From the NCBI GenBank assembly GCA_019973935.1, contig BMAU01016994.1, forward strand, positions 944,762 to 1,008,761: a DNA stretch of 64,000 bases. The letters are read 5' to 3'. How positions within the stretch are numbered: the stretch's first letter is position 1; every line of letters begins with the position of its first letter. The notes below the pieces were generated by a model that saw nothing but the letters and a program-made list of their open reading frames with translations, did no database searches and was not told where the DNA came from. A program made the position numbers and the translations under genes. This DNA is from Trichonephila clavipes (lineage: Eukaryota). Below are positions 1,167 to 43,843 of this stretch, in pieces.

Positions 1167-1168
<2 letters not shown>

Positions 1169-1203: not shown

Positions 1204-1207
<4 letters not shown>

Positions 1208-9789: not shown

Positions 9790-10080
9790 TTAGAGCAATG
9801 GTGCACAAAAGGAGGGTGTCCTAGGGGTCCGACCCCCCAAAGCCCTTGATTTTTTTCCGATTTATTATAATTCCAAGTATATAGTACGTAAAAATTTAAT
9901 TAAGTATTTGTTATTAATGATTCATTCTATTAATTAATGCTAATTATTTATTCAATAATTAGCTTTTTGCTGTTTTATGTTCCCGAAAATAGACAATCAA
10001 AAAGGAGCATGTTACAAGAATGGTGGACTTTCCCCCCCCTCTCCTTGAAAAATTCCTGTGTGCGCTTTGTCTTAGATTAA
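9790..10080. mobile_element. MITE-like non-autonomous derivative of the piggyBac-like element at 41151-43843
   Basis: The left ~150 bp (caatggtgcacaaaagg..cccttgattttttt..ttattataattc..aatttaattaagtatttgttattaat) matches 41151-41290. The right ~70 bp (cccctctccttgaaaaattcctgtgtgcgc) matches 43800-43843. Confidence 0.6.
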
Positions 10081-10374
10081 AGCTTAAATGCTTATGTAGA
10101 ATTTCCCATCTTTGTAGATGCAGAAAATAAGCATAGAAATATTATTTACTCCCAATTTTTATAGTACATGTTACTGGAAGTGACATCACAAACTAAAAAA
10201 TTAAAAGATGATAGGCAAGGTGATAGGTTTAGAGCAATTATTCTAGAGAGAGAGATCTTACACCTTTATTTTTCCATTTAATATTGCTATCCTTTTGTCA
10301 CATACCGACAATTCAAATCTAATTCTAACTCTCTTATCCTTTTCACTAGAGTTTTTGCTATTCCTGGTGGCCGC

Positions 10375-10570
10375 AGTAACTTAGTGGTTGTGGTCACGAA
10401 CTCATGGCTTGAGTGTCGTGAGCTCAAGTCCTGTTGCCACTAAAGACGCGCCGTGTAGATGAGGCCATTCCTCCTGCTGATGTGGTAGTTAGGAAAGTGG
10501 GGTGCCTGCTCATGTGTCCTCCTCGTCATGCAACCTAGGTTTCTGATCAATAGCCCTCTTTTTGCTTTGT
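10375..10570 (+). repeat. Possible tRNA-like SINE fragment
   Basis: The region has a GC-rich tRNA-like head (gtaacttagtggttgtggtcacg .. gagctcaagtcc) unlike the surrounding AT-rich DNA. The evidence is weak. Confidence 0.25.
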
Positions 10571-10599
10571 AGAGCAACGTTAGACATCAAATGACCATT

Positions 10600-10990
10600 C
10601 CGGATTTTTCACCCACTAATAAAGTATACACTCCACAACAATTGTCTTCAAACTGTGTTCCACGGAACCCTGGAGTTCCATGATACGTGCCCAGGGGTTC
10701 CACGAGTCACAATAAATAAATCGAAAAAAATTATAAATGTGTATGCAAAATGGATTCGCGTTCTCTATGAAGTTTGTATCCTCACAAGAATTTAAAACTT
10801 ATTCTTGTCATTAAGAAACTGAAAATTTTGTTTCAACATAATAACTTTATTTTGCAATACTTTTTAAACTTTTATTATATTATAATAAAAGATATATTAA
10901 AATGTGTTTTATTTATATATATTACCTAATAGATTGTAAAAATTTTATTGTTTACTATCCCGGGTTCCACGAGATAATTGTATACTCGTT
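10600..10990. repeat. MITE-like repeat sharing terminal sequence with the MITE end at 57033 (ttc.caaactgtg..cc.gggg..cacgag)
   Basis: 10636-10700 resembles 57033-57085. A subterminal direct repeat gggttccacgag occurs at 10688 and 10966. Confidence 0.35.
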
Positions 10991-11572
10991 AGTACAACGT
11001 CTTGCAAAACTAAATAGTTTTCCATTGGAAAGTGCCCCTTTTGACATATGTTGGGAAAACACCTACAATAAGGGAGAGGTAACGACTTATCGACCTATCA
11101 ACAGATTTGATGTCCAAACTCTAAATTCAAGCAAGAAAAGCTCCTAAATTTTTTGTTGCAAATTCATACTAAATACTCAGTATTCCTCTAAACATTTTAA
11201 TGCCGTTCATAACAATGTGTATAAGTGAAAAATATTTCTTGGCATAAGTGGTTACAAAAACAAAGTATAGAAATAAATTAAGATTAGAATATGTAATGCG
11301 ATATTGCAGTTAATTTCAATGGGCTTAGACTTCCAACGGTTTGTGAGAAAAAATCAAGCATACATTCTAGTAACTATACATATTGCATGGGTGGGTGAAA
11401 CCTGGATCACAGATTAATATTATTAATAATCGGTTTAATTTCGAATCGAAAATTTTTAATAATCGATGCAATGCTTTTTTTAATTGCCTTTACAAAAAAG
11501 TGTGTGTGGCATAGGGTTCGACAAAAATACTTTCTAGTTCTAGGGACTCCACAAAAAGACCTAGTTCTAGCT

Positions 11573-12222
11573 CAGTGGTGGCCAACCTGTGGCCCGGTGA
11601 AGTTGTAACAGGGGCGCGCGAAGACATACCGAAAAATTAAAAGAAATTTGAATACATAATAATGAATAATTTCTACAATTTTATTGAAGTGGGGTTGTCT
11701 CAGACAAAAGTCTCAAAATTTGGATCAAAATATGTTTGTGTGAATAAATGTTTTCTGCTATGAACATAATAAAATAAATATTACTTATAACTAGCTGATA
11801 TACACCTATAATAACCTAATTTTGTTAGCATCTGCAAAAGTTAATCCTAATATAGATGACTTGGTAAAAGAAAAAAAAGGAATAATCCAAAAGCGACATT
11901 AAGTAAATACTAACTCTGTTTAATAATTACTTAAAATTAAACATTTCAAGTTACTAATTTTTATTTTGTACCTAACTTAACTCAATTGAACCTGTAAAAA
12001 GTTTATTAACAATAAAACCTATATAAATTTGCACTTCATCTTATTTTTAAATTTCCTGCATTAAAAAAAAAAGTGCTATTTGCGTAAAAATTCCACAATA
12101 AGCCTACAAGTAACATTTTTTTTACTTTTCCATATTTGTTTGATGGATGTGTTGGAAGTGGCACTCATTATTATTTTTTATCAAATTGTGGCACTCTTCT
12201 CAAAAAGGTTGGCCACCCGTGT
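11573..12222. mobile_element. Tc1-like MITE (~650 bp) with CAGTG termini
   Basis: The left end reads CAGTGGTGGCCAACCTGTGGCCCGG. The right end reads GGTTGGCCACCCGTG, which is its reverse complement with one mismatch. There is no coding capacity. Confidence 0.6.
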
Positions 12223-13394
12223 TCTTGGGGTTCTGTGAAGAAAAGTTTGAAGACCACTTTTGAGGAATAATCCCACTACCAATTCCACAGTTGACATGTG
12301 CAAGTAATTCTTCTGGTAAAAACTAACAGTGTGTGTGTGTGTCAGCTGATCTCAAGGTCACTTGACCGTTACCTTTTCGAAAGGATGCCATGGGGCGTGG
12401 TTTCTTGATGTATAGTTTAAGGTTACTTTTTTTTTTAAATCCCCATTTTTTCATGTAAAAAAAGCAAAATTAGTGTTTCTGATGTGGTTTAAATTCGTAG
12501 CAAAAAATATTCTTTTTCATAAAATATAGTGTTATTAATGTGTATTTAAGCAGTTTATTGTATTTTTCTAAAGTAACATTTTAAAAACTTTTGTAAATTG
12601 CATACACATGGTGCCATCTGCTGACTTTGTTATAAAGCTTGCCAACTATGGCATCAAAAAATTCTGGAAGCAAGGATATATGTATTTTTCGTAATTTAAA
12701 AAATTTCTAGACTTTATGACATTTCTACATTTCAAGGCAGATTTATGAGTAATTTACGTTCTCAGCAAAAGTTTTACACCTGAATAATGTGATTTCACTG
12801 TGCAAAAGTACCCTAACCATTTCAGTACATTTGGCAGTCCCCCTTAAGAAAACAGTTAACTTCTAATTTTATCAAAATGTTTCAAAATACTCATTCCAAG
12901 TAACATATTTATGTATTAATTAAAATTTTTAATGAGAAGGAATGGGCTGCATTTATTTTACAAATACTGTTATATCAGGTTAAATATTTGTAATCCGCAG
13001 TTACAATTCCAGTTCTATAGTTTCTGCACTTATTTTAAGGATAAAATAGAGCTGAAAATATTCTTTCACATAAATCAGTAGTTTGGAAAAGCATCAGAGC
13101 TTTTTCATGGACAAATTGGAAACATTTTCCTGCAAGTGTATCCTAAAATTTGAAATGAAATTATAATTATGGCTAAGCAAAATAAAAAACTAAGTTAATA
13201 TTCTTGATCAGAATATATGTAGAGGTTTTTCATTGTAGGCAATTCAGTGATCTAGACTAGGTTGGCACACCTTTTCATTATAACCCATGGCTTTTCAGAG
13301 TTCTGTAAAAGTAAGAATATTAAATGAGAGACCTTTGCAGACCCCCTAGAAAGGTGCACCTGGAGTTCACATACTACAGTTGAAGAACTGCTGA

Positions 13395-13759
13395 TCTAGA
13401 GCAGTGATTCACAACCTCCGGTCCACGGACCGGTACTGGTCCGTCGATAAAATGGTGCCAGGCCGCCTAAACAACATTCAACTATTGTCATTTTATTTAA
13501 AATGGTGCATTTCTCTCGGATTTGTGCAACTTTCCACGGAAATAACTTTATATTCCACGTTAAATTACTTTTATTCATTTTTGGTGTAACTATATTTTAT
13601 TCTGAAGGCATATTTAAATGTAACTAAATTTAAATTGTTAAACCAAAACAATCTACAATATAAACAATCAATGTGTCTCACCCTCGGCGGGCAACGGTAA
13701 AATTATCAAACGTTGATCGGTCCGCAGCGATAAAAAGGTTGCGGAGCACTGATCTAGAG
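13395..13759. mobile_element. Tc1-like MITE (~365 bp) with ~22-bp TIRs
   Basis: The left end is tctagagcagtgattcacaacc. The right end is ggttgcggagcactgatctaga, which is the inverted repeat. Inner inverted repeats ggtccacggaccgg and cggtccgcagcg are also present. Confidence 0.7.
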
Positions 13760-15229
13760 TATTCAATCTTTTAAATGTTTTCTTTTTTGTTACATTTTAT
13801 GAAATTTCTCCTGTTGTACATTTAATAGGAATTTTCATTCATGTAAGCATAAAAAAATTTAAAGAGTGAAAAAATGAGTGTATTTTTTTAGTTAAATAAA
13901 AGATTTAATGTTTAGCCTGGGAAATTTTTTTTTTTAAAACTAACAGAAAATGAATTTAATAAAAACAGCTGAAAAATAAAAAGTACGTAAAAGAAATTGA
14001 TACTACTATAATGTATGAGATAATCGGAAAATTTAAATTTAATGAAATGTTAAATTTTGTGTGTGTATGTTCTCTGATTATTAGTAGAAACCTATGGCAA
14101 TTGTGTATTATGCAAAGTCACCAAAGTAGCACCACAGTCACTTTTATCAAGACAATTGTAATACATATACGTTCAACCCTATTTAACGAATTTCATGATT
14201 TAACGAATCTTTCTCTTTTCCCAATTAAAAGGAAAACAAAACAAAATCTTATTTAAGGAATAATAAGCCCTGAATTAGTGAATTACTTTGGCACCTGTAA
14301 TTTTTTTATTAGTTTGTATTGGAAAAAATTGGTTTTTTTTTCAAATGACATTTTTGGCAAGAACAGAATAGGACTTCTTGTAAGCAGCAAATTTGTACAG
14401 GCAAGGGTGAAGGCCATTATTATACTTTACAGGTGCAGATGAGTCATGAATGTAACCCATTATGAGTAGGATAGAAAATTACTCATTCCAATCAACAATG
14501 TGGTTGATATTTTAAGATTTTAACGATAATGGTACATTTCATGACAAACTGCCTATCTGTGCAACTGAAGTTGAAGGAATTGTTTATTGGAGCCAATAAG
14601 TAGCAATTCCAATACTAAACTTGATAATGAAACTAATATCAAAACTCTTACATTTTCTGATGCTTTACATTGTTTGGAAACTGTGAAAACATACCCTTCT
14701 CTTATGCTGCAGAATGTAAATGATACAGTATTTTCTTCTCTGCAAGAAGTCGGAGAACTTTTGTGAGTCAGGAAACAAGAAGACTTTCAAGCATTTAAGT
14801 CAGTAGTTTAAAATTTCCAATTCACCAGCACATAATTCATTAATAATATTTTTAGCTGATGAACAAAAAGTATGCAATTTCTAACTATGGATATTTTTTG
14901 CGTATTTGCTTGTAGAATTTCCATAATGTAAGTGCAAAAAATTTGTATTTTGTTTGGACCCTGGTATAACAAATGGCCCCGATTTTCTGACTGTATATCA
15001 TAATATGCATGAATAATCTTTAAATTTCTAACATTTTGTTTAGGTTAAAAAATAATCAACTTTAAATTTATTTCCAAGTAACAAAAAAATCATAATTGTA
15101 TTTAGTGTTCTGACTAAATTTTTAAAACTTATTTTCATAAGCATGTTTTATAAAGAGAAACATCACTAAAGAATGTTACAAGTATGTTTTACTCTTCGAT
15201 TAATTTTTTTGTAAATATCTCATGAATGA

Positions 15230-15955
15230 TCTCATCTCCTGTTTTGGATGGCTTGCTGTAATTTTCCTTGAGTTTCACAAAACAATTTGCTTTGATCGAA
15301 GTTTCTTTTGGCATAAAATCCTCTAAAGGAACACTTTTTTTTATCCCAAAAGATAGTTACCAAGACCTTTTATTTTGAAAGAGTCTGAATTTTCTGTTTT
15401 TGTGGCTGATGAGGAATGATGCCACTCAAATGAATGGTGCTTGCTTTTTGGGGTGATTCAAGACACCAAGGTCTCATCACCAGTCACAGTCTGATCAAGA
15501 AAGGTACCCCCATTTGTGTTATATGCCAAGAGTGTTAATGCTAAGTCCATTCTCTTAGTTTTGTCTTGGTCGTTCTGAGTTGTTACAGAAACAGTCATGC
15601 ACAAATTTTGCTGTAACTGAAATGTTGTGACATTGTTTCACTAAACAAAAAATGAGAAATGTCTGGAAACAAAATGTGCAATTTGTCAAAAGTTGCATGC
15701 CTGTCTTGCAAGGTCTGATTTCATTTTGACCACTCCAATTGTACAAGGGGGATTTCTTCCAACCTGCTCTGATAGTGCAAACACATTATGAAAGCTAGTT
15801 GATCTCCTGAAAAGTGTAAGAGGAGTGACCTACATGGCTAAAATGTGGGAGCAATCTTTTGTCTAGATGCAGTGAACACATGACTTAATAAACTGGCAGC
15901 AGAAGAGTATAACATGCAAATTCTGAAACTCATTAACAGATACAACAAATGTTGT
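15230..15955 (-). mobile_element. mariner-like transposase fragment (pseudogene)
   Basis: The minus-strand translation gives KVLVTIFWDKK..FRGFYAKRNFDQSKLFCETQGKLQQAIQNRR and ..KTKLREWT.H.., which match the conserved mariner central region. The 5' side abuts the SINE inserted at 15961. Confidence 0.55.
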
Positions 15956-15960
15956 TTTGG

Positions 15961-16355
15961 GCCGTGGGTAGCCTAGTGGTTAGAGCATCGGACTCCAGAC
16001 CGGAAGGCCTGGGTTCGATGCTCGATGTCACCAAATACCCTCCGAGTGCACACGGAGTACGTGCTCATTAAATCAGTGGGTCCGTAGTCTTGTGGGCTTA
16101 TTCACTAGCGCAGGAACTGGAGAATATTTCCCTCCCCTTCAGTTCACTTGCAGAAATTGTGGAGGTGGAGATAGAGGTCGTGTCGCCATCTATCGTCCCT
16201 TCGGGGAAGTTTCTCTGAGCTTAAATCGCACTGTCACCTGTATGGTGCTCAAGGCCAACGACAGGCGTACCTCTTGCCCATGCCACGATGAATTTCAAGG
16301 GCCTCGTTCTGACTACGTCAGACAGGTGGCATTAGTCACAACACAACAACAACAA
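15961..16355 (+). mobile_element. tRNA-derived SINE, copy 1 (tRNA-like head, ~300 bp body, (CAA)n tail)
   Basis: The head is gccgtgggtagcctagtggttagagcatcggactccagaccggaaggcctgggttcgatgc, with A-box and B-box-like motifs. The tail is acaacacaacaacaacaa. It is about 90% identical by eye to 26031-26416. Confidence 0.85.
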
Positions 16356-17654
16356 ATGTTTAAATGAAGGTAGTGATTTTATAGTACAGTGAAGGAAGCT
16401 TCTGGTATGCGACCAAATCCCCCCAATGAATATTGTGCTTTTTATTTTATATAATTAAGTAATTTTTATTTCTTAGTTGACCCGTGTAGTTGTACATTAC
16501 CAGTGGCTTAGTATTTACTTACTTTCTACTATATTAAACCTTTAGGTAATTTAAAGCAAATATAAGAGGAAGTACTTTTTCCCCTTTAATTGTGTTAAGC
16601 TTTTTCATATTATGGCAAGAGATTGTTCATCTTTTATCAATTAAAATAAAATTTTCTTGTTTAGCAAATTTAATTAAGTTTTCTGAAAAGGATTTTAGAT
16701 GAAAATATTTTTGGGTATAATTTTTATGTTCAATTTATGAAATGTCAATTTTAACAGTGTTTTTTTTCATCATAATTGATGACCATAAAAAGTTAAAATA
16801 GATGAAAGTATTTTATTCATAAAGCGAAATAATAATAACTTATGATAGGTTTTATATGATTGTATTGAGAAATTGAAGAGAATGTTTTTTTTTCCTGTTA
16901 TTTCATACATATATAACAAAACTTTTTATAGTTTGAGGTAAAAGATTGTTGTCAATGGAACCATTATATTTCTTGACTATTGGAGTTTATATAAAATATG
17001 AGTTCACAAGTTGCCTATATGAATATTTATAGCTGTAGTTTTATTTTATTTTATTTAACTTGATAATGGGCACCATATCCAATTGTTGATTATGTATAAG
17101 TTTAAGAGAAAAAGAGGAATAAATTATAAAGAGATGTAGCTTATCCACACACATTTTGGATCTGATTTAATTGAAATTTATTTAAAACATTACACTGCAT
17201 TCCAAAGAAATGTTCTTTACTGTATTAAATGCATTTCTTAAATAATTGCTTACTAATTTTAAATAATCCATTTGCTAATTGCAATGCTAGTGAAAAACTT
17301 TTTATAATTGGTCTGCATATTGTGTTTAGTCATTTAATTTGATAGAGGCTGTTGCATTTGTTTTGTTTTTGCTTCTGTTTTTTTATTGTATTCTTCTCTC
17401 TCTTTTTTTAGAAAGGTTTAGGAAGCAAACCAATATAAATTCAAATCTTACCTTTTATAAATTTAGCAAAAAGGAAAACAGGCTTAAACAAATGAAGGGA
17501 AAAAAATCTAATATCAAATTAAAGGTTTTCAGAGAAATTAGGCCAAATGCACCTATTTAGAACAAAAATTGCATTGTATAGCTTTAACAGAAAAGTAATC
17601 ATTGTTATTTTTTTATTTTAAAGAAGCATTATATTTATATAAATATATTTGCAG

Positions 17655-17850
17655 GGTTATTCATGGACCACAAGATATGATTATTATTCCTCCTTATCAT
17701 TATTGCATCATTCGCAATCCTGTGCTTCGAAATTCTGAAAGTGCTGTAGTTTATGATAGTGTTGGTCAAATCAAGTTAAAACATGCTGATTTGGAAGTGA
17801 GATTGCAACAAGATCCTTTTCCATTATACCCTGGAGAAGTTATTCATGTG
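17655..17850 (+). CDS. MVP: MVP exon (partial CDS, vault repeat 2 region): [35 protein letters not shown]
   Basis: The acceptor AG is at 17653-17654 and the donor is GTATGA at 17851. It is colinear with human MVP ..[31 protein letters not shown]. The first base completes a codon begun in an upstream exon that I did not find. Confidence 0.85.
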
Positions 17851-18854
17851 GTATGAAAATTAATCATAATTTTAAGTATTTAAATAAGTGTGTGGATGTT
17901 AATTTTTTTTTAAAAAAATCTATTAATATCCAATGATTCTTGGTAGGTTCATACCAATTTTTTTTTAAAAATTAGGAATAAAAAATCCACATGTAACATT
18001 TGGAACATGTAAAATTTGTCCAAAAATTTTACATGTTCTGCTTATGTGCAGTTTTCAGTTCTCTATTTCAAAGTATTTTTATTCCTGAAAAGGATTCCTT
18101 ATGAGTATTTTAAAGTTTAAATAAGATTTATAATAAAAATGACAAAAAGCAAAATTGTTTTAAAAAATTGTTTTTAATATATATATGTACTACTGTGTGG
18201 CTAACTTGTTTTGACATACGTCTGGTTATACCAATCCTAAAATCCAGCATAAAATGCACACTTTTAACACAAATAATAAGATCGAAATTTACAGGTGTGC
18301 TTTATATGTCGGGTATAAAAGTGAGAGCTTTAAAAATTAAAAAAAAAGATGAATATAGGAAAAAAATAGATCTCTATACAGATCAAAATAGAGTTTATTT
18401 AAAAGAAATAACATTTCTTATGAACTTAAAGGGTTGTAATTCTACAAGCATGCTATTTTTTTTATAAAGCTTTGAATAATACCTTGAACAAATGACTTTA
18501 AAACATAAGAGCATTATGCAAATGCATTCCAGGTTTCCTCTTAAAAAAGGAGGTGCACATTATACGGAACTTTCTTAGACTATGAAATGCTTATTTTTAA
18601 CTGACAATTATATCTTTAAAATATTAATTTTCATAGAAAAAATTAATATTCTCAAATCAATTTTTTTAAATACTGTTTCATTTAAATGTTTTTAATTATA
18701 TATATGGATTTTACTTTGTTAAAAACTTTTAAACTAATAAATATATAACGTTTTTAGTATTTTAAAAATTTAATTTTTTTAAACACCTGAATACAAGATT
18801 TTGTTACAGCTTAAATAAATTTAAGTTAAAAAATTAAATTTTTTTACATTGCAG

Positions 18855-18975
18855 GGAGTGACCCCGTTAACAGTTGTACCATCAAATACTGCCTTGCGAC
18901 TCAAGGCAGTTCGAGATTTTGAAGATGATACTATCAAAAGAATTGCTGGTGATGAATGGTTGTTTGAAGGACCAG
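18855..18975 (+). CDS. MVP: MVP exon: [41 protein letters not shown]
   Basis: The acceptor is gcag at 18851-18854 and the donor is GTATG at 18976. It matches human [41 protein letters not shown]. It ends in phase 1. Confidence 0.9.
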
Positions 18976-21574: not shown

Positions 21575-24008
21575 GTAAGTTATTTGGAAATTTAGTTCAA
21601 CTCTTTTAAATATTTTTATGTGAAAAACTGATTACAAATGAATTATCAAAATCCTTTTTAAAAAAGAAATGTTGAAGAAGTATATTGAGTTTTTGTTATT
21701 CCCCTTGCTCCCTATGCATTTGAAATGAAAGTTAGACAAATTATGTTTTAGTGTGTGATTGAGTCACAACCTACTTTACAAATTAATAGTTTTCCAATTT
21801 TAAAATTTTGAATATGCAAAATTTCATAATGTATTATATTAATAAAGATATTTGTAATTATGAGACTCTTTGTTAAAAGGCAGTTCTCAAAATTCCTTAT
21901 TTTCATTGCCAATTCATTGTATAATAAACATAATTATGTAATTTTTTTGGAGGAGGAACTTTATGTTAAAACACTTTGTGTAGAAAGTCATACTTGAGAA
22001 CTCAAAACCGATAACTGTTTCAAGTGAGTCATGTCTTCGATTCTATTGAAGATGTGCCAAACACTAAAGCTGATCCATGTTAAGTCTGTCAGGGCTCATA
22101 GTCATTCGTCATGTTGAATATGGAATTTTGAAGAATGGGGTCCGAGCACAGGTTTCACTTTTTATTCTTTCATCATGGTTCAGAATTACAAGTCTTACCA
22201 GTAGCTTTAGTGTTGTATCCAACAATAATAGAATAAAATTTTAAAAAATCATTGAATGAGAGAAATCTCTGCAGATATATTTATAGTGAACTGTGGTTTG
22301 TAATCAAAGCTAAAAAACTTATTTTTGACTTTTTAAATATTTTTCCATAGTTCATTAAATTTAATTAGTCCTTAACACTGAGTTTTCAATGTATTTTTCT
22401 GATTTATATATATATAATTTTATATATATTCCTCCTAAATATTAATTTTTAATACCATATATTTCCTTGTATAATTCAAGAAGTTTTGTAACTTTTTTAA
22501 AACTAAAGTATGTGATTGGCATATATATGGATTTGCTAACCCTGAAAAAAAAAACTTAGTTTCTAAAAAACAATTTTTTTTAGAACATTTCCATTAGCCA
22601 TACACAAATGATTTTGATCTCTTAACTTTTTGGAAGTTTTTGAATTCAGTTATTTTTTTTTTTATTCAAGAAGTCATACGAGTCCTTTGAAGTTGGCATA
22701 ATAATCAGAGATTCCATAAAATTTGTAAAATTTTTCCATGTGTTGAGGTGCTTAAATATATATGATCATCATGTGGCAAGTTTTTCATCCAGAACATGAA
22801 ACATAGGCAAATAACCACAAACAGCCTTTTTATTTTGTCATCTCTAATTCTAGATGTTTTTTCCCTCCCATCCTTGAACTTGTTTCTTATTTACAAAGAA
22901 ATGTTGGACAGAAATGCTCTTAATAGAACTTTCAGAAAACAGAAACACTTGTAGTTTGATATAAGCTATACTGAAAGTTCTCTTCCCATTAATTTTCCAG
23001 AAAAAAGTGGCATGAAAAATAATACAAGTACAGATAGTTTGCAAAATAACAAACGATACCAATGTTTATGTCATCCAGATATAGCTTTTCTTTTTTATAT
23101 TATAATAGATTATATTAAAATTTAAAGCTTCCAAGAAGAGAGGAGAGAGAAATTTAAAAATTTACCTCTCCAATTCTGTTGTTCCTGAACGCTATTATTA
23201 GTTTTCCTTATTTAGCTTTGTAATAGTTTATTATATACAGATTTGTTTTTAATAAGTGCTACAATGAAACCATTCTTTTCCTGTATCAATGTATTATTTG
23301 TTTATATTTTTTTTATGAAAAGAGAAATTTATTTAGTTGATTGATAGTTATATTTTCATGAGTAGTAAAATAATGATTTTGTAAGGGTAACAAAGTCAAA
23401 TCACAGATCTTTTTTTAAAAAAATTATTTTTTTTAATTTGGTGATCTACTGATTAGTTTTAATTACTCATCTATATATTTGGAAAGTGCATTTATATATT
23501 TTAAATTAATAGCTCAATGGTGTTTTTACAATATCTTTTTTCTCTTGTTTACAAATCTATTGACTTAGGAAACATATATATTCAAAGAAATCTTTAATAA
23601 GACTAAAACTAAGTAAAAAGACTTTGTAACATGAAAAACATTTCATTTTACAAAGTCCATTCAAATAACTTGTTTTAACTCTTAAAGTATTTTTCTGCTA
23701 GTCATCTAAATAGCTAAAAAGTTATCACTTTTGATGAATGTGTTATTGTAAAGTTGAAAACAATCTCATTTTCCTGTTCTCCATAACCATTTTCTATAAT
23801 TTTGGAAGAAAAAGTAGAGAGCTATAAAATTTATTGTGATCTAAAATAAATATGATCCCAACACCATTTAATAGACTCACACAGACAAAATAACTTTTTC
23901 GGTTGAGTAAAATAGTACAAAGGTTAAAAACTACTTCATTTCTAGCAAAATACAGATTTCTTATAGTGTTATGGTTTAAAATTCTTAATGTACTTTTTCT
24001 TTTTTAAG

Positions 24009-25851: not shown

Positions 25852-26030
25852 GTAAGTAGAGATCAACAGCCTTTGTTTGTATTAAAAAAGATACTTCAGA
25901 ATTTTTTTCATTTTCAGTGAGAAATGCTTTGAGATGTAAGAATTTTGAACAAATCTTGTATAACATTTACTGAAATTTGAAAATGTTTAACTGCAGAATT
26001 TAAGATATACTTGTTTAAGTTATTTATAAG

Positions 26031-26416
26031 GCCGTGGGTAGCCTAGTGGTTAGAGCATCGGACTCCAGACCGGAAGGCCTGGGTTCGATGCTCGATGTCA
26101 CCAAATACCCTCCGAGTGCACACAGATACGTGCTCGGCAAATCAGTGGGTCCGTAGTCTTGTGGGCTTATTCACTAGCGCAGGAACTGAGAATATTTCCT
26201 CCCCTTCAGTTCACTTGCAGAAATTGTGGAGGTGGGAGATGGAGGTCGTGCCATCTCCATCGTCCCTTCGGGAGTTCCTCACCGAGCTTAAATCGCACTG
26301 TCACCTGTATGGTGCTCAAGGCCAACGACAGGCGCACCTCTTGCCCATGCCACGACTTCGTGGGCCTCGTTCTGACGACGTCAGACAGGTGGCATTAGCC
26401 ACAACAACAACAACAA
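26031..26416 (+). mobile_element. tRNA-derived SINE, copy 2 (same family as 15961), in an MVP intron, with an 11-12 bp TSD
   Basis: It has the same head and body as copy 1 and a (CAA)n tail at 26401-26416. It is flanked by gttatttataa(g/t) at 26019-26030 and 26417-26428. Confidence 0.9.
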
Positions 26417-28370: not shown

Positions 28371-31300
28371 GTAAGTATTTTTAGAAATAAAGATTTGGAA
28401 CATTTCTTTTTAATTATTTGAATGTGTATTATGTCTTGATTGATTCTGGAGAAGGCATAACTGATCTTTTTTTTTAAACTTATTTGTGTTACTTTTAAGT
28501 TATGCACTATTCAATCAAAACGAATTAAAACTTCTATGATATTTTCCTAAAAGTGCACATTATTTTTTCACGTTTTGACTGCCGTGGCAGTTTTTGGGAT
28601 TCCAGTGTAAAAAAATTTGAGTATCCAGTGTGGTACAAATTACACAACTATTACAAAATTCATATTTACTCTGATATACTACAAGTTTTATTATAGGTGC
28701 TCAAATATGGCAAGTCAAAAGAAAAACTTCCTGATAACTTGTAAATGGTGTCTTGGGCAATAATGGAAACTACAAATTAACTAGTGGCAGTCAAAATGTT
28801 AAAGTTCTTTTGTATATTTCGTTTGCTATGGGAAAATTAAGAGTAATTTCTATTAGCTGCTGAAATTATATTTGTATTAAAGAACATAAAACAGACTACA
28901 AAAACTACTTTTATGGAAGGGGTTTTGTAGGCAAAAAATGTATGGGGATAAAAAAGAGTGAGGTTTGAAACTTCAAATCTCTATCTTGTGTATGCCATTG
29001 TATGTAATACTTATCAAAAGAGTGGTATATTTTCTGTTAAAATTTCATCGATGAATTAAAAAGCATGAAAAAATGTTGAAAGTATGAATGTTCCTTTAAA
29101 AATATTCCTAATTTGTTTAGACTAGGGATGGCCAATGTGTGGCACATGTGCCACAGTGTAGAACAGCAAAGTTGTATCTGTGGCATGTGAAGACTTGCTG
29201 AAAATTCAAAATATTTGAAAAGATGATAATAATTAGCAATTTTTTTTAACAATTGTATTGAAATGCGGCTGTTTTAAACTAAAAAATACACTCAAAATTT
29301 ATTTGAAATACACTTAATTAATTAAATTACAATGGGAAATAATCACATGTAGAGACTCAATCTCTAATGTTGTGTATGCTGGCTTTCCGATATTATGGAA
29401 AATTTAAATAATTTTAATTTATAATCACAGAGAGAAAAGATTGTATTTTTCCTACGCAAGTTAAGTCCTATAACTTTTATGAAGAGTTTTTTGCTTTTGC
29501 AAAAAAGGTTAATTAATTCAGGAACTATTTACCAAAGTTAACAATTCTCCAAATGACGGATTAAAAAATTTAATATTCATTTTGCAGGATTCGTTCAGTA
29601 CTAAGTTTGCTAATTTTCAAGATGATAAAAAATGCTGTTCTTTTCACAAATCTTTTTTAACATCTCTGCAAGACTTTGATTATTGCCCACCTGAAATCGA
29701 AATTGTGACCTACAACACAATATATACTGAAAAACAAGTATAAGGAAGCTATTTCAACTGTAAATGATCCGAATTATGTTGAATTTTGGAAATTTGTACT
29801 AACAAGCAATTCTCCAAATTTACACGATTTGGCTGTCATATATTGCTGTAGGTTTAGATCAACATATATTTTGTAAACAAATGTTTTCTGTTATGAACAA
29901 AATAACATTAAAAACTCAAAATTAACTGATATGCACCTAAAACAATTTTGTTAGCATCTTGAAGAGATAACTCTGATCTCTACAGTGGCGTAGTGGATTC
30001 TAGGGGTTCAAAGCCTGACTGACCCCAATTACGTAATCCTTTTAAAAATCGGGGCCCGTGACTTTGCTGGGAGCTCCTAATATTTTCCATTATGCCACTT
30101 CTAATCTAATCCTAATATAGATTACTTAATAAAAAAAAACTGCAAATTCAAAAATCACATTAAGCAAATACTGACTATTTAATATTTATTTAGAATTAAA
30201 TCATTCAAGTTACTCCCTTTCATTTTATACCAAATATAACTGATTGAACCTGTATAAAGTTAATTAACAATAAAAGCTAACTTTGTACTTTTGTCTTATT
30301 TATTATATTTTTAAAAATTTGCGCTACTTATATTTGCATAAAAAAAGGAGTTATTTGTGCGAAAATCCCATGATAAATCTTTATGTAATTATTTTTTTCT
30401 CCTTTTCATACTTTTTTTTTTGTTGAAAATGCAAGTGGCATGTGTAGGGTTTTTTTTATCAGATAGTGATACTTCCCCAAAAAGTTTGGACACCCCTGGT
30501 TTAAACCTTGTGATCATGTTAGTTCTTAGATTATCTTCTCTCTATTGAAATCACTTATAAATATGTTCAATTATAATCAGAAATGAAGAAGGAATTAATA
30601 CATATTCTGGTTTCAACAAGTTTTTTAAATTTCCTGTTTTTTTTGGAACTCCAGATCTATTTCCTAAGTTATCTTAAGATTTGTGAGTTATTCAAAAAAA
30701 TTGCATTAGGATTTTTAAAACTTAATTCCTTCTTTTTGATTGAGTTTTATTAATTGTTTATATGAAAGCAATACCTTTTCAGCTTTTATTCTAAAAGGTT
30801 AAATAGTGAATCATTTTGATATGTTTAATATATTGTTTTTAACCTAATATATTTTTTGAGAGGAATGCTAAATATTTAAAAATTATATAAATGTTCTGGT
30901 TTATTGTGAAATATCTTAAATTGTATTATTTAGGAATTAAAGGTATTTTTCAGATGAAAAAATTCGTTAAAAATGTTTTAAACTTATGTGATTTAAAATG
31001 GTTTTAAAATTTCAAATTTAATGTTCTTATTTTCTTCAGAAAGATACATTAGATTGTATGTATGGATATACATTATATTGTATTCATTAATGTATTATTT
31101 TTGTATATATAATATATGTTCATGATTTTTTTCTAGATGTACTCGCATATAGTATTATTGTATGTCAGCATACTTTAAATTACCTCAGTCTGTATTATTT
31201 ATTTTTTAATGTATCAACTTTGTGAAACTTTCATCAAATACATCTCCTATTTGAAATATTTATTTTGTAAAATATTTTAAATAAACAAGTGTTTTATTTT

Positions 31301-31378
31301 TAAATTCACATTGATTTTAATAGTATGTGAATCAGTACCCAGTAATTTTATAATATAAAAAAAATTATTAACTTTCAG

Positions 31379-35747: not shown

Positions 35748-35959
35748 AATTCTGCCAAAATCATACGCACAGCTGTTTTTGGATTGGATGAAAACAAGAA
35801 AGTTAGAAGAACTTTTAACTTCCCTCAAAATAATCTGAATATTACTAGTGTGGATATTCAAAGTGTTGAACCTGTAGATCAACGAACCAGAGATTCATTG
35901 CAAAAGTCTGTTCAGCTTGCTATAGAAATTACCACTCAAAGTCAAGAAGCCACTGCTAG
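35748..35959 (+). CDS. MVP: MVP exon: [70 protein letters not shown](R)
   Basis: The acceptor AG is at 35746-35747 and the donor is GTAAAT at 35960. It matches human [62 protein letters not shown]. Confidence 0.9.
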
Positions 35960-36525
35960 GTAAATTTAATATTCATGAACTATCCATTTATTTTTTTTAA
36001 AAAAAATTTATCATTAAATACAATATATTGAAAACTATTTTTTTTAGATTTTTATTTCTTGTTCGGTTTTATAAATCATTATGACAAATTCAATTTTTTT
36101 TCTTTGATAAAATTAGTTTGTATTAAGCATATTTGTACAAATATATTGCCAAAAATTTTGGTGTATGTAATTTATATGTACAATTACTTAAATTTAAAAA
36201 ATATTTTTCAGCAATAAAATAATTATCAGTCTCAAATTTTAGACATCTCAAATCAAGTGTAATACTTTAATTGAAATTAGTTATATGGATTATATATACA
36301 TTTTTGGATATTAGACTATGCTTGCAAATAAGCCTTGAATTGATACGCTCTGCTTATTTAAAATGATTATTTGATTATATTGATTTAAAATTATATAATT
36401 TGTTCAATGTGATTGTTTATTTTTAGAAGCAGTGAAATTTTTTGTAGTAAATTTTGTGCGTAAATGTGTTAATCTAATATAAAATGGGATAGAAAAATTA
36501 AAAAGAGTTAATATAGAAATACTAG

Positions 36526-37878
36526 TATGAGGGGTGATAAAAAGGAAGGTTGCAAGTCAAATAAAGAAATATTTATTAACAATAGACAGAAAATACAAAA
36601 GGGAATTAAGAGGCATACATGCCCCTATTGCTCTTTTCAACATAATCACCAAGTCTATTTAGGCATTTATCAGATCGCAGAACTAACTTGCTTAACCCCT
36701 TTTGGTAGAAATTGGGCCCCTGTCCATTGAGCCAAGTCTCGGCGTATGTTTTCACAGCACTGTCTGAAGAGAACCATCTATGGGATAAGTGCTCCTTCAA
36801 CCTCGAAAATAAGAAATAGTCACTGGATGCCAAATCTGGGCAGTATGGTGGTGGTGGGGTGACTTAAGATTTCCCACCTGAACTGTTGCAACAATTCTTC
36901 CATTGCTCGAGCAATATGGGGCCTGGCGTTGTCATGCAGGAGAACACCTTCACTCAACGTGCTTGTCCGTTTGCACCATATGGCTTTGTGTAACCTTGTC
37001 AAAATGGCACAATAAGGATCTGCATTCATGGTCTGGCCACGTTCCAGGTAATCAATTAGGATAATACAACATGAATCTCAGAATATGGTTGCCATAACAT
37101 TACTGGCAGAGGGTGCAACCTTAATTTTTTTTTGTTCGTGATCTAGGGTGTTTCCACTCCATGGTTGCTTTTTTGCTTTTAGGGAAGAAATGAGGATGCC
37201 AAGTTTCTTCCCCTGTAACGATGTGATTGATGAATTGCTGGCCATCAGAATGGTAATACTGAAGAAATGTGAGATTGCACATCATTCGTGTGGCTTTGTG
37301 CTCATTGGATAACACATGTGGAACACAGAGGGCACACACCTTGGAATATCACAGCACATCAGAAACGATTTGCTGCACGCTGCCATAGCTCAGTCCCAGC
37401 TCTGACGAGATTTCACGCAGAGTTATCAGTCGATCATTTTCTTTCGATCGATTCTTCAACTCGTGCCATGTTGATTTCTGTTGTTGAGGAACTTGGCTGG
37501 CTGCTCTCTGCCATATTGGGGTTTTCGACATCCTGTCTACCTGATTGAAAAGAGTGACATCATTTCATTATTTGTTGTCTGCTCATTGCTTCTTCACCAT
37601 CAGCTTCCTTAGATTTGACTGTGAATGTCAGATGTGGACACATTATTTGCCCATAAAAATCAAATCGCAGCTCGCACTTCCATATGAGACCAATTTTCTT
37701 AGTGTCTTGCCATTTCAATCGTCCTCAACCATCTGGGAACTTTCACTACCTACCCACACACCAGCTGTATGACAAATAGTGCCATCTGTCTTCACCTTGG
37801 GGAAACAAAATTTCTCAACCGTATGTAGTTTTGGTTGTAAAAAAGGTTGTAACCTTTTTTTCTGATCATCCCTCATAA
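36526..37878 (-). mobile_element. mariner-like element (~1.35 kb) with ~30-bp TIRs; the transposase is a pseudogene with stops and frameshifts. It lies in an MVP intron.
   Basis: Minus-strand ORF fragments give ..HDNARPHIARAMEELLQQFRWEILSHP.. , ..SSDYFLFSRLKEHL.. , ..IVTGEETWHPHFFPKSKKATMEWKHP.. and an N-terminal HTH (ITLREISSELGLSYGSVQQI). The TIR on the left is tatgaggggtgataaaaaggaaggttgcaa. On the right the reverse complement is tatgagggatgatcagaaaaaaaggttacaacc. Confidence 0.8.
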
Positions 37879-39444
37879 AATTTTATAAACAAAGTGTCTT
37901 AAAATATACAAACACATCGAGAACTTAATCATCTTGTTATTATCACTAAATATTCTTTTAAGCACTAATGTGATGAAATAAGTTTAGTATAGGATTTAAT
38001 AGCACATGTTAACATTTGATACTGAAGGCATTTTTTAGTTGACACCAAAAGATTTACTAAACACATTAATTTTATTTGCATTCTTTTTTTTAGTTCCAGC
38101 TTCCAAGTCATTGTTTATGATTTTTAACTGTTTATGTGTCTCCATAAGATGAAATGCATTCAAAAAACACAAATTCTTTGTGTCTAACACAATTTCCTTT
38201 GTGTTAGTCATGTATTTATCAATTTGATATAAAATTGTAGAATCTTTAAAGATGATTATCTCTTGTTAGTTAATCTAATTTTCATTGTTCGTTCTATAAA
38301 AGGCTAGTCACTCTAAGTTGTCATTGTTTGTTTCTACTTGGACTTTATATTGAATTACAGGAAAGTTAACTTTTGTAAATTAACCAGTTGAAACCTCTCT
38401 TCATCAAAAGATTGAGAAAAGGGATTTCATTCCACAATCATAGTATTTTAGTCATATTTTTAAAGAATAAGTTCTTTTTCATGGTTTGTTATTGGCCTAA
38501 GTAGTTAGGTTCAATGTATCATTATTTACTATTATTTAAAGTTTTTTCCCCCTACACGATAAACTAGTCTGAGATAAGTTATCTGTATCATCAAAAAGAG
38601 TTATTTCAATTTAATTTTAAAATATAGATCCCTTTAGAGTCTGATGTACATAATAATTAAACAAACTCTAAAAATTACTTACTATTCAAAAATGTTAGAT
38701 AATATTGAGTAATATAACCATAGTAGAGAGAGATTTCTTCGCATACTGGTATTATTAGTTATGAAACAAACTGAGATTGAGTTACCTGCTACTTTTTGTA
38801 AAAAGTGTTTAATGTATGAGAAAATTAATACTTTGATTTTTGAGGGTACTGTGTATATGGTTTTGGTTGTATATGTGATTAAGAACATTTCCTAAAATCA
38901 TGGAAATTTGTAAAATACTTCTGAAATTTATTATGTGTGTATCATAATTTATTTAATTGTTTTGGGTGATTAAATTACAAAAGTATTGATGTAGTAGAGA
39001 AAAAAAATGTCTAATGAAAGTGCTTACAGATTTATTACAATCTTTAATTCCAACAATGAAAAATATTTGTTATATTTCACTTCAAAATATGCAAAGAATG
39101 GGATAATTGTTGAACACATGTTTTCAAATGGGCTAGGTTTATGAGGAGCAATTCATGATAAATGTAATCTTGTGTTTGTGATTGAATTCAAAGCTGATGT
39201 TTGATTTGTACTTATAAAATCGAGATACAATATCAAATTTGATAATTGATAAAGATGTCTGAGAATTAAGATTCTTCAAAAAGTTTTTCAAAACAAAATC
39301 TTTATTTCAGGCGTCACACAAAAAAAATTCGAAAAGAAAAATTTTTTGTAAAAAACTAGAATATGCAATAGTGAAACACATGAACTGACTAGCTGGAACA
39401 TTTATTATGACAAAAATGTTATGTATTTCATCTCCTCATTGTAG

Positions 39445-39688
39445 ACATGAAGCAGAGAGAAGGGAGCAAGAAGCTCGTGGTCGCCTTGAACGACAGCGAA
39501 TATCTGATGAGGTAGAAGCAGAAAAATCAAGGAAAAGCTTGTTGGAATTAAAAGTCAGTAGCATGTCCATTGAAAATTGTGGTCAGGCTAAAGCAGAAGC
39601 TTTGAGTCGTGCAGAGGCTAAAAGAATTGAAGCTGAAGCTGCTGTAGAGCAGGCTAAATCAAAGGCAGAGGCTATGACAATTGAAGCA
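39445..39688 (+). CDS. MVP: MVP exon: (R)[81 protein letters not shown]
   Basis: The acceptor AG is at 39443-39444 and the donor is GTATGT at 39689. It matches human [85 protein letters not shown]. Confidence 0.9.
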
Positions 39689-41150
39689 GTATGTTGCTTA
39701 TTGTTCTGTGAATTACTAATTTTTCTTTACGAAGTTAAAAGTATGAATTGTAAATTAAGTTTAAATTATTTTGGTAAATATTTAACAAGTTCACATATTT
39801 TAATGGCTACATTAATTTTGCTTTTAACAGTTCATTTTTCTTAATTTCTAAATTACATGAGTATTTTTTCCCCTCTTGACTGCTGGTTTGAAAATAAGGA
39901 TTTAATTTTTATATTTACTAATATAATTTTCATTCATGACTGTGATCTCATCAAGGTATAGGATTTTCATACAGCTATTAAACATTTTTTTTTCAAACAT
40001 TGCTTCTTTTATAAAACAGTTTAAAAATATAGAGGAATGTAATTTTCATTTATGAAAAATGATATATATATTTTTAAAAATAATAATTTTATATGCCAGT
40101 TCTGCCACCTTATTAAAAATTTTTGTTTCATTTTATATCGTTGTCACTCCTGAAGTGTGTCTAGTCACTAGATTTTGAAACTGCTTAATTCGCTTCCCTC
40201 ATATTTTTTACTTGTATTCATAATTTTAATTACAAATACAATAAGAAATTATGTAATTGTATGAAAAAAACCAATATTTACTATGCTTAATTTCTTTCTT
40301 TATTTAAAAACTAAATATATTTTCATTATGTAAGTGCAAAGTTTTATTTAACCTGCAAGAACTTGAATTGTGGGACTTTTTCTTATATGCTTTAAAAAGT
40401 GCATAATGTGTTTATTGTAATATGCAAATGTTGCTTTTCTCTCCAAGTTTTATAACTCCTCATTACTGTTAGTGATAGTAATGAGCTTTGTACTTTGCTA
40501 GTAGGGATTCGTCACATGGCCATTAATTCTTGTGAAAGAAATTCTTATTGTCAGAGTTCTACTGTTTCCAATTTTATGTTCAGTGTGAGTTTTTTCATTG
40601 TGTGAGTTCTGTCATTTTAATGTTAGTTAAATCCTTCTGATTAGTGTTCCACCTCTGTATTTATCAGCTATACATCTTGACTTTTAACAAAAAATTATGC
40701 ACTGCTATTAACCTCTTATTTTCTGAGGAATGTTATGAAATTCGCTCCCTAATGCCACCATTTTTCACATAGGTGCTCATAATTATACAGTTATTTGTAA
40801 GTGTATCATTATAAAAATCTTTTGTGAAATAAATAAATCCTTCAGAAACACTCAAGTCCATTTCATTGCATTTTAAAGCCTTTGGAATAGTTTTACTGAT
40901 TGCATGACATTGCAAAAAATTGCATTTTCGTAAGGCATATATACTTGCCAAAATAGTTAACCAACCAGCTAAGTGAGGCATGCTTGAGTTCTCTCATTAT
41001 TGATTTAAGGTTAAGCAACATTATTGATTATTGGTTAAGCAACTTGTTCTAAAGGTTTTATTGTAAGAATGCTCTAAGGTTTCTACTATACATAAACCTG
41101 ATTTTGTTTATGGATGTTTTATGTATCATTGTTTATAGTATTGTTGTTTT

Positions 41151-43843
41151 CAGTGGCACACACAAGGGCAGAGCAACCCCCCCTCATCACCCTTGAATTT
41201 TTTCTTTTGGTTGATTATAATAATTCTATGCATATAGAATATAAAATTTAATGAAGTATTTGTTATTAATTAATTATTTATTTTATTAACCATTTGACGG
41301 TTAGGGAAATTAGCAGTTTTTGTTTACTTAATTCACACAGGTTAGTAAGCAGTAGTGGAAAGTGGCAGCTGTTTTCCCCTGCCATTCTTTTGAAAATGTC
41401 ACCCTTCTCCGGCGATGCCATAGATAGCTCGCCTCACGCGTTTTAAAGATTTCTTAAAGTATTTGTAGTACACAAATAACAGTTTTTACGTACTTTAAAA
41501 TAATTAATAAATGATAATTATTAAATAGTAAATTATAAATGATTATAATCAATTATATAAATAATAATAGTTAATTATAAATATAAGACAAATATTAAAT
41601 TGAAAGGACTAAACAAAAACAACTAATGTAAAACTTTATGAAGCATTTAAATATAGTAATTACCTAAAAAATCTTTTAGTGTGTGATATACTTTAAAACA
41701 TGGAATTGCACATAATGGGGCATTACAGTCTTTGCAATAAGTACGTGTTTCACAGCGAATTCTTTTTCCATTGGCATCATTTTTGCTGCAACATACCACA
41801 CATCGTCTAGTAGGTCCTTTCTTTTTTTCTGTAGGTGGAATATAATCAAGAAAGTGGCGTGCTGACAATCTTAAAGTATTCGAAACTATTTCAGCAGGTT
41901 TTAATTTCAAATGCCTGCTTGTGATATTTTTCAACAATTCTTTCAGCTAGTTCAATTCTGAATTCCAAATTTGATTTTTTTATTCCCTTTTTTTTTCCAC
42001 AGCTGAAAAGCATTAAAAATTATGTCCAATAAATAACCAAATATTTTCTTGTAATATTTCCTTTGACGAGATCGAGTTAGGTCATAGTATCCAATTTGCT
42101 GATCCATGCGATCTACACCACCCATCATATTATTATAATCTGAAACGATCTTAAGCTTCTCTATTTCCGCATTTTTCAATTTATTTGGGACTTTTACGAT
42201 TTCAGGATTATGAATTGAGCTTATAGAATAAATATATTTTTTTATCTCTCCATTGCATGGTTGATGGTCTTACCTCTTTGATAGGCAAGTAAGTCTCCCT
42301 TTTTAAGCTTTTCTGTTTTCAGCTCCTTTGTTAGATCTTTTCTGTTAGGTCATAATGTTCCAAAAAAATTAGTTTTAGATTTTTCCTAACTCGGGAGAGT
42401 TGTAGTAATTATCCATAGTAAGGCAGTATCCTTTGTTTAATAGCAACTGAGACAATGTCAAAACTACCTGAGTAGAAAATGAACATTCTTTATTTTCTTC
42501 AGATACATCTGTACCTTTACTGACATAAATTATAATAGACCACACATATCCACTATGAGATTCACATAACATAAACATTTTGATACCGAATCTGACCCTT
42601 TTAAGTGGTAAGTATTAGGTCCAAGAAAGCCTCCCTTTATACAGCAATAGACTTTCATCAATACATATGTCTTGTTCGGGTGTATAAACTTCAGAAAAAT
42701 TTTTCTGTAAGTAATTTAAAGCAATGCATATCTTTTTTTTAGTTTTGGCTGAGGATGAGAAGAATCAGTGTTTTCATTCCTATCAAAATGAATAAATTGC
42801 ATAATACGGTCAAACCTTCTCAAACTCATGAGGTTAGAAAAACTAGGAGTTTCAATTAACTTTCTTTTTGACCAAAACATTCTTACAGTTGGTTTTGTAA
42901 TTATTCCTTTCAAGATTAATGTTGCAAAAAATACTCTCAATTCATTCGCATTCGTTTCACTCCAATGATGAATTCGAAAATGTTCTTTGCTCTTAAATTT
43001 ATTTAAATTTTCAGCAACAAAAATGTTGGTTTCAGTAACAATATAATTTACAATCTCATGAGTAAAAAATAGCTCGAGGTACTCTAGTGGATCAGAAATA
43101 TTTGTCACACAAGCTTTCATGCCCACATCAGCAGTAAAACTAAATCAGCTAGGAGCATGAGAACTTGAATCAATTTTACACTACTGTCGAACACTTGAAA
43201 AATCTTCCTCATTGCTTGAATCGTCTTCTAAGCTTGATATGCTGTGAACAAAGTCTTCATCAGACTCAAAACTTCATAAGCTTTTTGTATCGAAATCAAA
43301 ATCATCATCATAATAATCTAATTTTCACTTTTGAGCCATTGTACTTTACAAACACCCTAAAAACATGTCAAAATAGGCATAAAAAACAAGGTTAAAAAAA
43401 TCCCCCTTCATTATGAAAAGAAACTCATGGAACCCGTACTGCCATCTGTAGACAGTAAAACTAACTAAATTTCGCGAGTAGGATTCGTTTGTAACATAAT
43501 TAATGCAGAATAATAAATTCGAACAAAGCAAACTCGTCAGCGTGATTTGGGGAGTTTTACAACACAAGTAGTACTCGTTTCTAACCATTTGGGTCGAAAT
43601 CTTGCTCCCGAGCTGAACTCGTTTTCGCGCATTCTGAAGCACGATTTGATTGTGAACTGAACTCGTTCATAACCATCAAAGGGTTAATTAATACTAATTA
43701 TTTATTAAATAATTTGTTTTTAATGTTTTTTTCCTGACTAAATCAAAAGAATATGTTTGACAATTTATTGGGCTACAATATAAGAATGATAAACTTGCGA
43801 CCCTCAACCCCTCCTCTTGAAAAATTCCTGTTTGCACCACTGG
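41151..43843 (-). mobile_element. piggyBac-like DNA transposon; the transposase is a pseudogene split across at least four ORF fragments. It lies in an MVP intron.
   Basis: The minus-strand ORFs are 42716-43126 (..RIHHWSETNANELRVFFATLILKGI..FWSKRK..MSLRRFDRIMQFIHF), 42375-42578 (..SGYVWSIIIY..VVLTLSQLLLNKGYCLTMDNYYNS), 41952-42179 (..NNMMGGVDRMDQQIGYY..RKYYKKIF) and 41647-41937, which is the C-terminal Cys-rich domain (CVVCCSKN..RIRCETRTYCKDCNAPLC). The terminal 150 and 70 bp are shared with the MITE at 9790-10080. Confidence 0.8.

Follow-up and report, generated by a model that had tools for sequence, protein, structure and literature searches.

The locus described here raises the question of how many transposable elements make up a 2.7-kb block in an intron of the major vault protein (MVP) gene of Trichonephila clavipes. 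The window, that is, the whole stretch of 64,000 nucleotides that was analysed (GenBank assembly GCA_019973935.1, contig BMAU01016994.1, positions 944,762 to 1,008,761), carries this block at 41151-43842. Remnants of a piggyBac transposase lie inside the block, its outer ends read CAGTGG...CCACTG, and a much shorter element upstream in the window matches only those ends. A first, sequence-only reading had taken the block for one piggyBac whose non-canonical ends could reflect either a divergent subfamily or a misplaced boundary, and the short element for a miniature inverted-repeat transposable element (MITE) derived from it. The comparisons reported here indicate that the locus is very probably a nested insertion, in which two unrelated cut-and-paste DNA transposons occupy one MVP intron and a piggyBac lies inside an older, hAT-like short element. 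The nesting of one DNA transposon in another is commonplace.

Boundaries of the two elements

On the forward strand the piggyBac begins at 41290, where TTAA is followed by CCATTTGACGGTTA, and finishes at 43683, where TAACCATCAAAGGG is followed by TTAA. The sequence TTAA plus CC(A/C)TTTGA(C/T)GGTTA is present at 41286-41303 and, facing inwards, at 43670-43687, and the pattern TTAACCCTTTGAYGGTTA (at most three mismatches) matched only these two places in the 64 kb (chance expectation 0.15). No piggyBac-derived MITE was found in the window, the terminal inverted repeat (TIR) pattern being restricted to the two ends of the relic itself. Its TIR arms, CCATTTGACGGTTA and CCCTTTGATGGTTA, agree at 12 of 14 positions, and an intact copy has a perfect 14-bp TIR and TTAA. 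The definition of piggyBac comprises a TTAA target, a TIR of 12-19 bp and a DDD transposase (PMC5381638), and the unit at 41290-43683 is entirely canonical by the criteria of that source.

Ten contigs carrying P0001, an intact 561-aa relative of the relic transposase, were retrieved (L001-L010), and two copies from Trichonephila inaurata (L012 and L036) were added. At least one canonical terminus was observed in 11 independent copies (L001-L010 and L012) and both termini in seven of the 11; the twelfth, L036, shows the 3' terminus. Both ends are visible in the intact copies L003-L006, as TTAA followed by CCCTTTGACGGTTATGAACGAG and CCCTAACCGTCAAAGGG followed by TTAA. Most of the retrieved P0001 contigs are 2418-2431 bp long and start and/or stop at the TTAA termini or a few bases from them, the usual outcome of assembly at a repeat edge. 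All family copies that extend to a terminus end at the inner TTAA, and where flanks were retained (Logan contigs L001 and L002, T. inaurata L012 and L036) they are unrelated to the short element in four of four cases.

Removal of 41290-43683 and one TTAA from the block leaves 294 bp, colinear with the short element at 9796-10069 (copy 1) through the junction. In this composite the junction falls at 139/140, and a single blastn high-scoring segment pair (HSP; E=2e-26) crosses it from position 40 to position 181; there the composite reads ...ATTTTATTAATTAATACTAATT... against ...ATTCTATTAATTAATGCTAATT... in copy 1. The match of copy 1 covers the outer 139 and 155 bp of the block (41151-41289 and 43688-43842) at ~75-78% identity, and blastn detected no similarity between the short element and 41290-43683. 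The homology proposed earlier between a 290-bp element at 9790-10080 and the outer ends of the block was thus correct, with the limits corrected to 9796-10069 (274 bp) and the end of the block to 43842 instead of 43843.

The orthologous MVP loci of Trichonephila clavata (L011), T. inaurata (L034) and Nephila pilipes (L035) were compared with the window. Intron identity to the window is ~88-92% for T. inaurata and ~80-87% for T. clavata, by which T. clavata is the more distant of the two. The T. inaurata alignment is colinear but skips from window position 41282 to 43684, and in L034 the two segments meet at 46339/46338; a complete short element lies at L034 46213-46493, with both CAGTGG termini, an uninterrupted core (...TTATTAATTAATGC...) and no piggyBac. 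In T. clavata the core and right half of the short element, with a single TTAA and no piggyBac, were found at L011 ~44646-44920. Since the same site is occupied in both species, the short element predates the sampled Trichonephila divergences. The orthologous intron of N. pilipes is ~1 kb long, cannot be aligned around the site and is uninformative on the presence of the short element there.

The two elements also differ in their target-site duplications (TSDs), which are TTAA for the inner piggyBac and 8 bp for the short element. The 8-bp duplications directly abut the CA...TG ends at both insertion sites; matches of at least 7/8 at this fixed spacing occur at 0.12% of window positions (chance rate 0.0012 per site). 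Additionally, the ancestral TSD GTTGTTTT was recovered on both sides of copy 2, the copy that holds the piggyBac, by species comparison. Coordinates of all features are given in Table 1.

Table 1. Features of the nested pair, the uninterrupted short element and the flanking MVP exons (window coordinates).
Feature	Position	Strand	Remarks
piggyBac relic, 2394 bp, element 5' end at 43683	41290-43683	-	91.7% identity TTAA to TTAA with intact copy L003; absent at T. inaurata and T. clavata orthologous sites
piggyBac transposase pseudogene, ATG at 43339	41665-43339	-	6 premature stops, 6 frameshifting indels, 1 in-frame deletion
piggyBac 3' TIR, CCATTTGACGGTTA	41290-41303	+	one mismatch to family CCCTTTGACGGTTA
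piggyBac 5' TIR, CCCTTTGATGGTTA on minus strand	43670-43683	-	pairs with 3' TIR
piggyBac TTAA TSD	43684-43687, partner 41286-41289	.	single TTAA at orthologous sites and in short-element copy 1
Copy 2 left part, host of nested insertion, including TTAA target 41286-41289	41151-41289	+	orthologous to T. inaurata L034 from 46213
Copy 2 right part, ending ...CCTGTTTGCACCACTG	43688-43842	+	megablast HSPs to T. clavata and T. inaurata resume exactly at 43684
Left 8-bp TSD of copy 2, GTTGTTTT	41143-41150	.	7/8 match to 43843-43850; T. clavata right side still GTTGTTTT
Right 8-bp TSD of copy 2, GTCGTTTT	43843-43850	.	7/8 match to left TSD
Short-element copy 1, 274 bp, non-coding TIR element, uninterrupted	9796-10069	+	colinear with copy 2 minus piggyBac; nhmmer E=1.4e-72
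Left 8-bp TSD of copy 1, TCTTAGAG	9788-9795	.	7/8 match to right TSD
Right 8-bp TSD of copy 1, TCTTAGAT	10070-10077	.	7/8 match to left TSD
MVP exon 5' of nested-pair intron	39440-39688	+	tblastn, T. clavata MVP P0121 residues 752-834, 97.6% identity
MVP exon 3' of nested-pair intron	44048-44239	+	tblastn, P0121 residues 835-898

Coding state and age of the piggyBac relic

The identification of the coding relic as piggyBac was borne out by Pfam, by PGBD4-like proteins of spiders and by the structures of piggyBat and piggyBac in PDB. Translation of 41600-43345 in the three minus-strand frames showed HHWSETNANE...MSLRRF, LLNKGYCLTMDNYYNS, NNMMGGVDRMDQ...RKYY and the Cys-rich C-terminus, all present. 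These segments had been described as split over at least four frames, which cannot be literal for a strand with three; the frame breaks themselves are real (six frameshifting indels). The stitched conceptual protein matched DDE_Tnp_1_7 from position 1 to 348 of the 349-position profile (E=1.7e-75), and its C-terminal Cys-rich domain is zf-Tnp_2 (E=1.7e-6, 28.9 bits, cut-off 24). In protein searches the nearest matches were intact P0001 (84% identity, full coverage) and Trichonephila and Stegodyphus fragments named "PGBD4" (85-90% identity). Against PDB, P0001 matched the piggyBat transposase (E=1.1e-64) and the piggyBac transposase (E=1.5e-39), with its motifs icIDEs, MDNYYNS and GGVDRMDQ aligned to piggyBat. 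The conserved Asp blocks CIDES, TMDNYYNS and GGVDRMDQ are still recognisable in the relic, and we take them to correspond to D268/D346/D447 of T. ni piggyBac.

Set against the intact P0001 reading frame, that of the relic is interrupted by premature stops at codons 5, 22, 53, 65, 241 and 333 and shifted by indels of +2, -11, +1, +1, +1 and -2. One further deletion, of 3 bp, keeps the frame, the original stop codon has been lost, and identity over the aligned codons is 87.7%. With six stops and six frameshifting indels, the relic lacks the intact open reading frame (ORF) that defines autonomy. The inner element is classified as an ordinary representative of the piggyBac superfamily, now dead, and kin to spider PGBD4-like proteins already in public databases.

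A three-way comparison of the relic, L003 and the T. inaurata copy L012 was carried out over ~2270 aligned sites. The relic has 93 private substitutions (~4%), has lost 37 of 85 CpG sites and is ~8% diverged from each of the two other family copies. The ~4% private to the relic amounts to nearly half of the 8-12% by which the introns of the window and T. inaurata differ, which fits an insertion around or after the split from that species.

Twenty-one contigs, drawn from at least 10 sequencing runs (ERR14858xxx/ERR14875xxx, including ERR14875821 and ERR14858314), carry the 561-aa ORF of P0001 without change; these copies sit between TTAA flanks at different loci, and their 14-bp TIRs are perfect. 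The family looks young. The intact relatives of the relic may represent a piggyBac family that is currently or was very recently active in a Trichonephila-like spider, a suggestion that we make tentatively. If the family is active, it would provide a naturally functional arachnid piggyBac and a candidate transgenesis vector.

The short element and the alternatives

Copy 1 of the short element begins with CAATGGTGCACAAAAGG and finishes with ...CCTGTGTGCGCTTTG, and copy 2 has the left terminus CAGTGGCACACACAAGG; the outer termini read CAATGGTGCACAAAAGG, CAGTGGCACACACAAGG and CAGTGGTGCAAACAGG. Three of the four ends show CAGTG, CAGTG and CAATG, and the remaining one has decayed to CAAAG. TIRs measure ~16 bp (CAGTGGYRCAMACARGG), with 12/16 positions matched in copy 2. 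Copies measure 274-294 bp, contain no ORF and have an AT-rich core with TTAATTAA; this AT-rich TTAATTAA core offers piggyBac a good target. Across copies, conservation is highest in the 3' subterminal CTTGAAAAATTCCTGTKTGC. Additionally, a CCCC..CTTGAWWWWTTCC motif similar to it, read off the alignments, lies in direct orientation in a subterminal position at both ends, the left one just inside the left TIR. Both CTTGAAAAATTCCTGTKTGC and the CCCC..CTTGAWWWWTTCC motif could be putative transposase-binding sites.

A search of the window for the TIR pattern gave five matches at three or fewer mismatches against 0.6 expected by chance, and no element was found around either of the weak matches at 28984-29000 and 63966-63982. 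Searches by blastn (word size 7) and by nhmmer with three- and four-sequence profiles covered 272,599 bases, made up of the window, the orthologous MVP loci of the three other species, two Logan contigs and two piggyBac loci from T. inaurata. They yielded no copy other than those at the two insertion sites and at the orthologous positions. A metagenome scan with the conserved 20-mer CTTGAAAAATTCCTGTKTGC returned 21 matches, all of them seed-only and in unrelated, mostly bacterial-looking sequence.

Two observations concern the edges of the short element. Directly after copy 1, a ~50-bp stretch at 10084-10133 (TGCTTATGTAGAATTTCCCATC...) has 92% identity to T. clavata L011 54239-54290 and resembles the arms of the inverted pair I6 (14907-14955 / 18402-18450); it probably belongs to another short repeat family. 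At T. clavata L011 ~44640-44670 the left terminus reads TAGTGGTTAGAGCATTGGGCAGA instead of CAGTGGCACACACAAGGGCAGA.

The hallmarks of non-autonomous hAT elements are an 8-bp TSD, the terminal motif YARNG and a TIR of 10-25 bp (PMC3014272, PMC3942097). The short element shows an 8-bp TSD at two sites, 5'-YARNG termini and a TIR within 10-25 bp, and because of this combination of 8-bp duplication, YARNG motif and short TIR it is assigned to the hAT type; the assignment as a hAT-like MITE derives from the structure of two insertion sites. It is short and non-coding, carries TIRs and TSDs, has an AT-rich core and lies near a gene, as described for MITEs. A piggyBac-derived MITE was also considered and rejected: the termini (CAGTGGYRCA...) are unlike CCCTTTGAYGGTTA, no part resembles 41290-43683 by blastn, and the flanks are TCTTAGAG/TCTTAGAT and GTTGTTTT/GTCGTTTT, not TTAA.

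The whole of 41151-43842 might still be read as one divergent piggyBac with CAGTGG...CCACTG ends and the 290-bp element as its internally deleted MITE derivative, and the restriction of the match to the outermost 139 + 155 bp is what an internal deletion would give. Nevertheless, canonical TTAA/CCC...GGG ends lie within the block, the family copies stop there, with four of them flanked by unrelated DNA, and the Logan contigs of ~2.42-2.43 kb break at TTAA, which gives a repeat unit of ~2.4 kb, not 2.7 kb. The two arms are joined via a single TTAA, without the piggyBac, at orthologous sites in two species, and the duplications next to the short element are 8 bp long instead of TTAA. The single-element explanation is accordingly given next to no credence: with its 8-bp TSDs and no similarity to 41290-43683, the supposed derivative is instead the type of sequence in which the piggyBac landed. 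A different timing of the same nested structure, in which the common ancestor already carried the piggyBac within the short element and T. inaurata and T. clavata lost it by precise excision, is very unlikely. It is favoured by the exact restoration of a single TTAA on piggyBac excision (PMC5381638), which makes an excised site indistinguishable from one never occupied, and by the ~8% divergence of the relic from two other family copies; yet it requires two independent excisions, or one plus lineage sorting, because T. clavata is the more distant species, and the change specific to the relic is only ~4%, about half of the window-T. inaurata intron divergence. Finally, the short element may be real and the host of the piggyBac and still belong to another superfamily with 8-bp TSDs (P element, MULE-like) or to an uncharacterised one. 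This is unlikely, with appreciably more in its favour than the two foregoing alternatives: only two duplications were seen, with one mismatch each and neither fully nTnnnnAn, the hAT call is a structural one, and YARNG has been attributed to the P superfamily (PMC2820524), so that the motif is not uniquely diagnostic. Against it, an 8-bp TSD, a CAGTG (YARNG) terminus and a TIR of ~16 bp are the features used for hAT assignment (PMC3014272, PMC3942097).

The preferred reading, a piggyBac nested in an older hAT-like element, has some observations against it. The left TIR arm of the relic begins with CCA, not CCC, by one substitution, a form inside the C(C/A/T)(C/A/T) range of piggyBac termini (PMC5381638). 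The T. clavata ortholog lacks ~283 bp of left flank relative to window 40867-41170 and to T. inaurata, and its left terminus is scrambled, so that only the right half and core are cleanly comparable; the loss resembles a deletion or rearrangement at the element edge, specific to that lineage. An insertion after the split cannot be told from an ancestral insertion followed by precise excision. The 8-bp length and the hAT call come from only two insertion sites (two paralogs plus two orthologs of one). Many hAT elements (Ac/Buster-type) prefer nTnnnnAn targets, and neither TSD fits this fully: GTTGTTTT has T at position 2 but also T at 7, and TCTTAGAG has A at 7 but C at 2, in a sample of two sites.

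As a nested pair, the locus very probably formed in three steps. A short non-coding element of ~280-295 bp entered the MVP intron before the compared Trichonephila species diverged, duplicating the 8 bp GTTGTTTT; its 8-bp duplication and CAGTG (YARNG) motif suggest mobilisation by a hAT-type transposase. A 2.4-kb autonomous piggyBac then entered a TTAA in the AT-rich core and duplicated it, most likely in the T. clavipes lineage and, by parsimony, as a later, separate event after the T. inaurata split. Neutral decay (six stops, six frameshifts, ~4% substitutions and heavy CpG loss) has left an inert relic antisense to MVP. With the boundary placed at the inner TTAA ends, the anomaly of non-canonical ends vanishes: the CAGTGG termini are not divergent piggyBac ends, the true ends being internal (TTAA/CCC...GGG), and the possibility of a misplaced boundary, which the sequence-only reading had raised itself, was the correct explanation. 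There is no divergent piggyBac subfamily here, and a CAGTGG-ended "piggyBac" is an artefact of reading the nested pair as one.

The MVP locus and comparison with known systems

The MVP gene lies on the + strand, with exons at 17632-46322 of the window by tblastn; the closest match of these exons is T. clavipes MVP (98% overall, several exons 100%). The first MVP exon detected in the window lies ~7.6 kb downstream of copy 1 of the short element. There is no sign that the relic affects MVP; it is intronic, antisense and ~205 bp from the nearest exon. The region 1-12843, which holds copy 1, has no long colinear match in the MVP loci plus 10 kb of upstream flank of T. inaurata or T. clavata, and is either poorly conserved or arranged differently between species.

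Other repeats were also observed. A short interspersed nuclear element (SINE) is present in two copies of ~385-395 bp, at 15960-16343 and 26030-26406, 92% identical over a flank-inclusive alignment, with a tRNA-like 5' head (GGCCGTGGGTAGCCTAGTGGTTAGAGCATCGGACTCC...GGTTCGATGC) and a (CAA)n-like tail; ARAGORN called no tRNA in the 5' region. Copy 2 of the SINE is flanked by an 11-bp duplication, GTTATTTATAA. Both copies lie in MVP introns and, being absent from the orthologous T. inaurata positions (L034 abuts at 21756/21745 and 31403/31391), are lineage-specific insertions. An 84-bp direct repeat pair at 1501-1584 and 9024-9107 (76% identity; blastn extension 9003-9131 versus 1477-1604, 72%) is another dispersed repeat upstream of MVP. 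Downstream of the gene, 56090-56643 matches T. clavata L011 20486-21048 (80%), and its first ~370 bp match T. inaurata L034 14321-13947, reversed (82%). Neither match is anywhere near its colinear place in the locus, and the region is either a dispersed repeat or a rearrangement. For annotation, the analysis provides the exact boundaries of the Trichonephila piggyBac family (TTAA followed by CCCTTTGACGGTTA...), the description of an old, low-copy hAT-like MITE, and dates for the insertion of the piggyBac and of two SINEs into the MVP gene, all three lineage-specific.

Mar/BuT2-related MITEs of Drosophila and the 32 non-autonomous hAT families of Anolis were used for comparison with the short element. 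It resembles hAT MITEs in its length (274-294 bp), its non-coding, AT-rich core, its CAGTG (YARNG) TIRs, its 8-bp TSDs and its position in or near a gene. It differs from them in an apparently low copy number (two insertion sites in ~270 kb), in TSDs without a clear fit to nTnnnnAn and in the direct subterminal CCCC..CTTGAWWWWTTCC motif at both ends. Genuine piggyBac-derived MITEs, such as human MER85, mobilised via PGBD3-related ends, have piggyBac TIRs and TTAA; the short element has neither, and shares with them only that it is a short TIR element close to a piggyBac.

The inner element belongs with the piggyBac-like elements, nearest to the spider PGBD4-like clade, and its relatives of solved structure are piggyBat (PDB 9c0f) and T. 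ni piggyBac (PDB 6x67/6x68). As in that group, there is a TTAA duplication, a 14-bp TIR beginning with CCC, a family length of ~2.4 kb and a single transposase ORF with a DDE_Tnp_1_7 core, DDD-motif blocks and a C-terminal Cys-rich zinc finger. Unlike them, the copy in the window is dead (6 stops, 6 frameshifts), has one TIR base mutated (CCA) and sits within another transposon, and it is because of this last feature that its ends had looked non-canonical.

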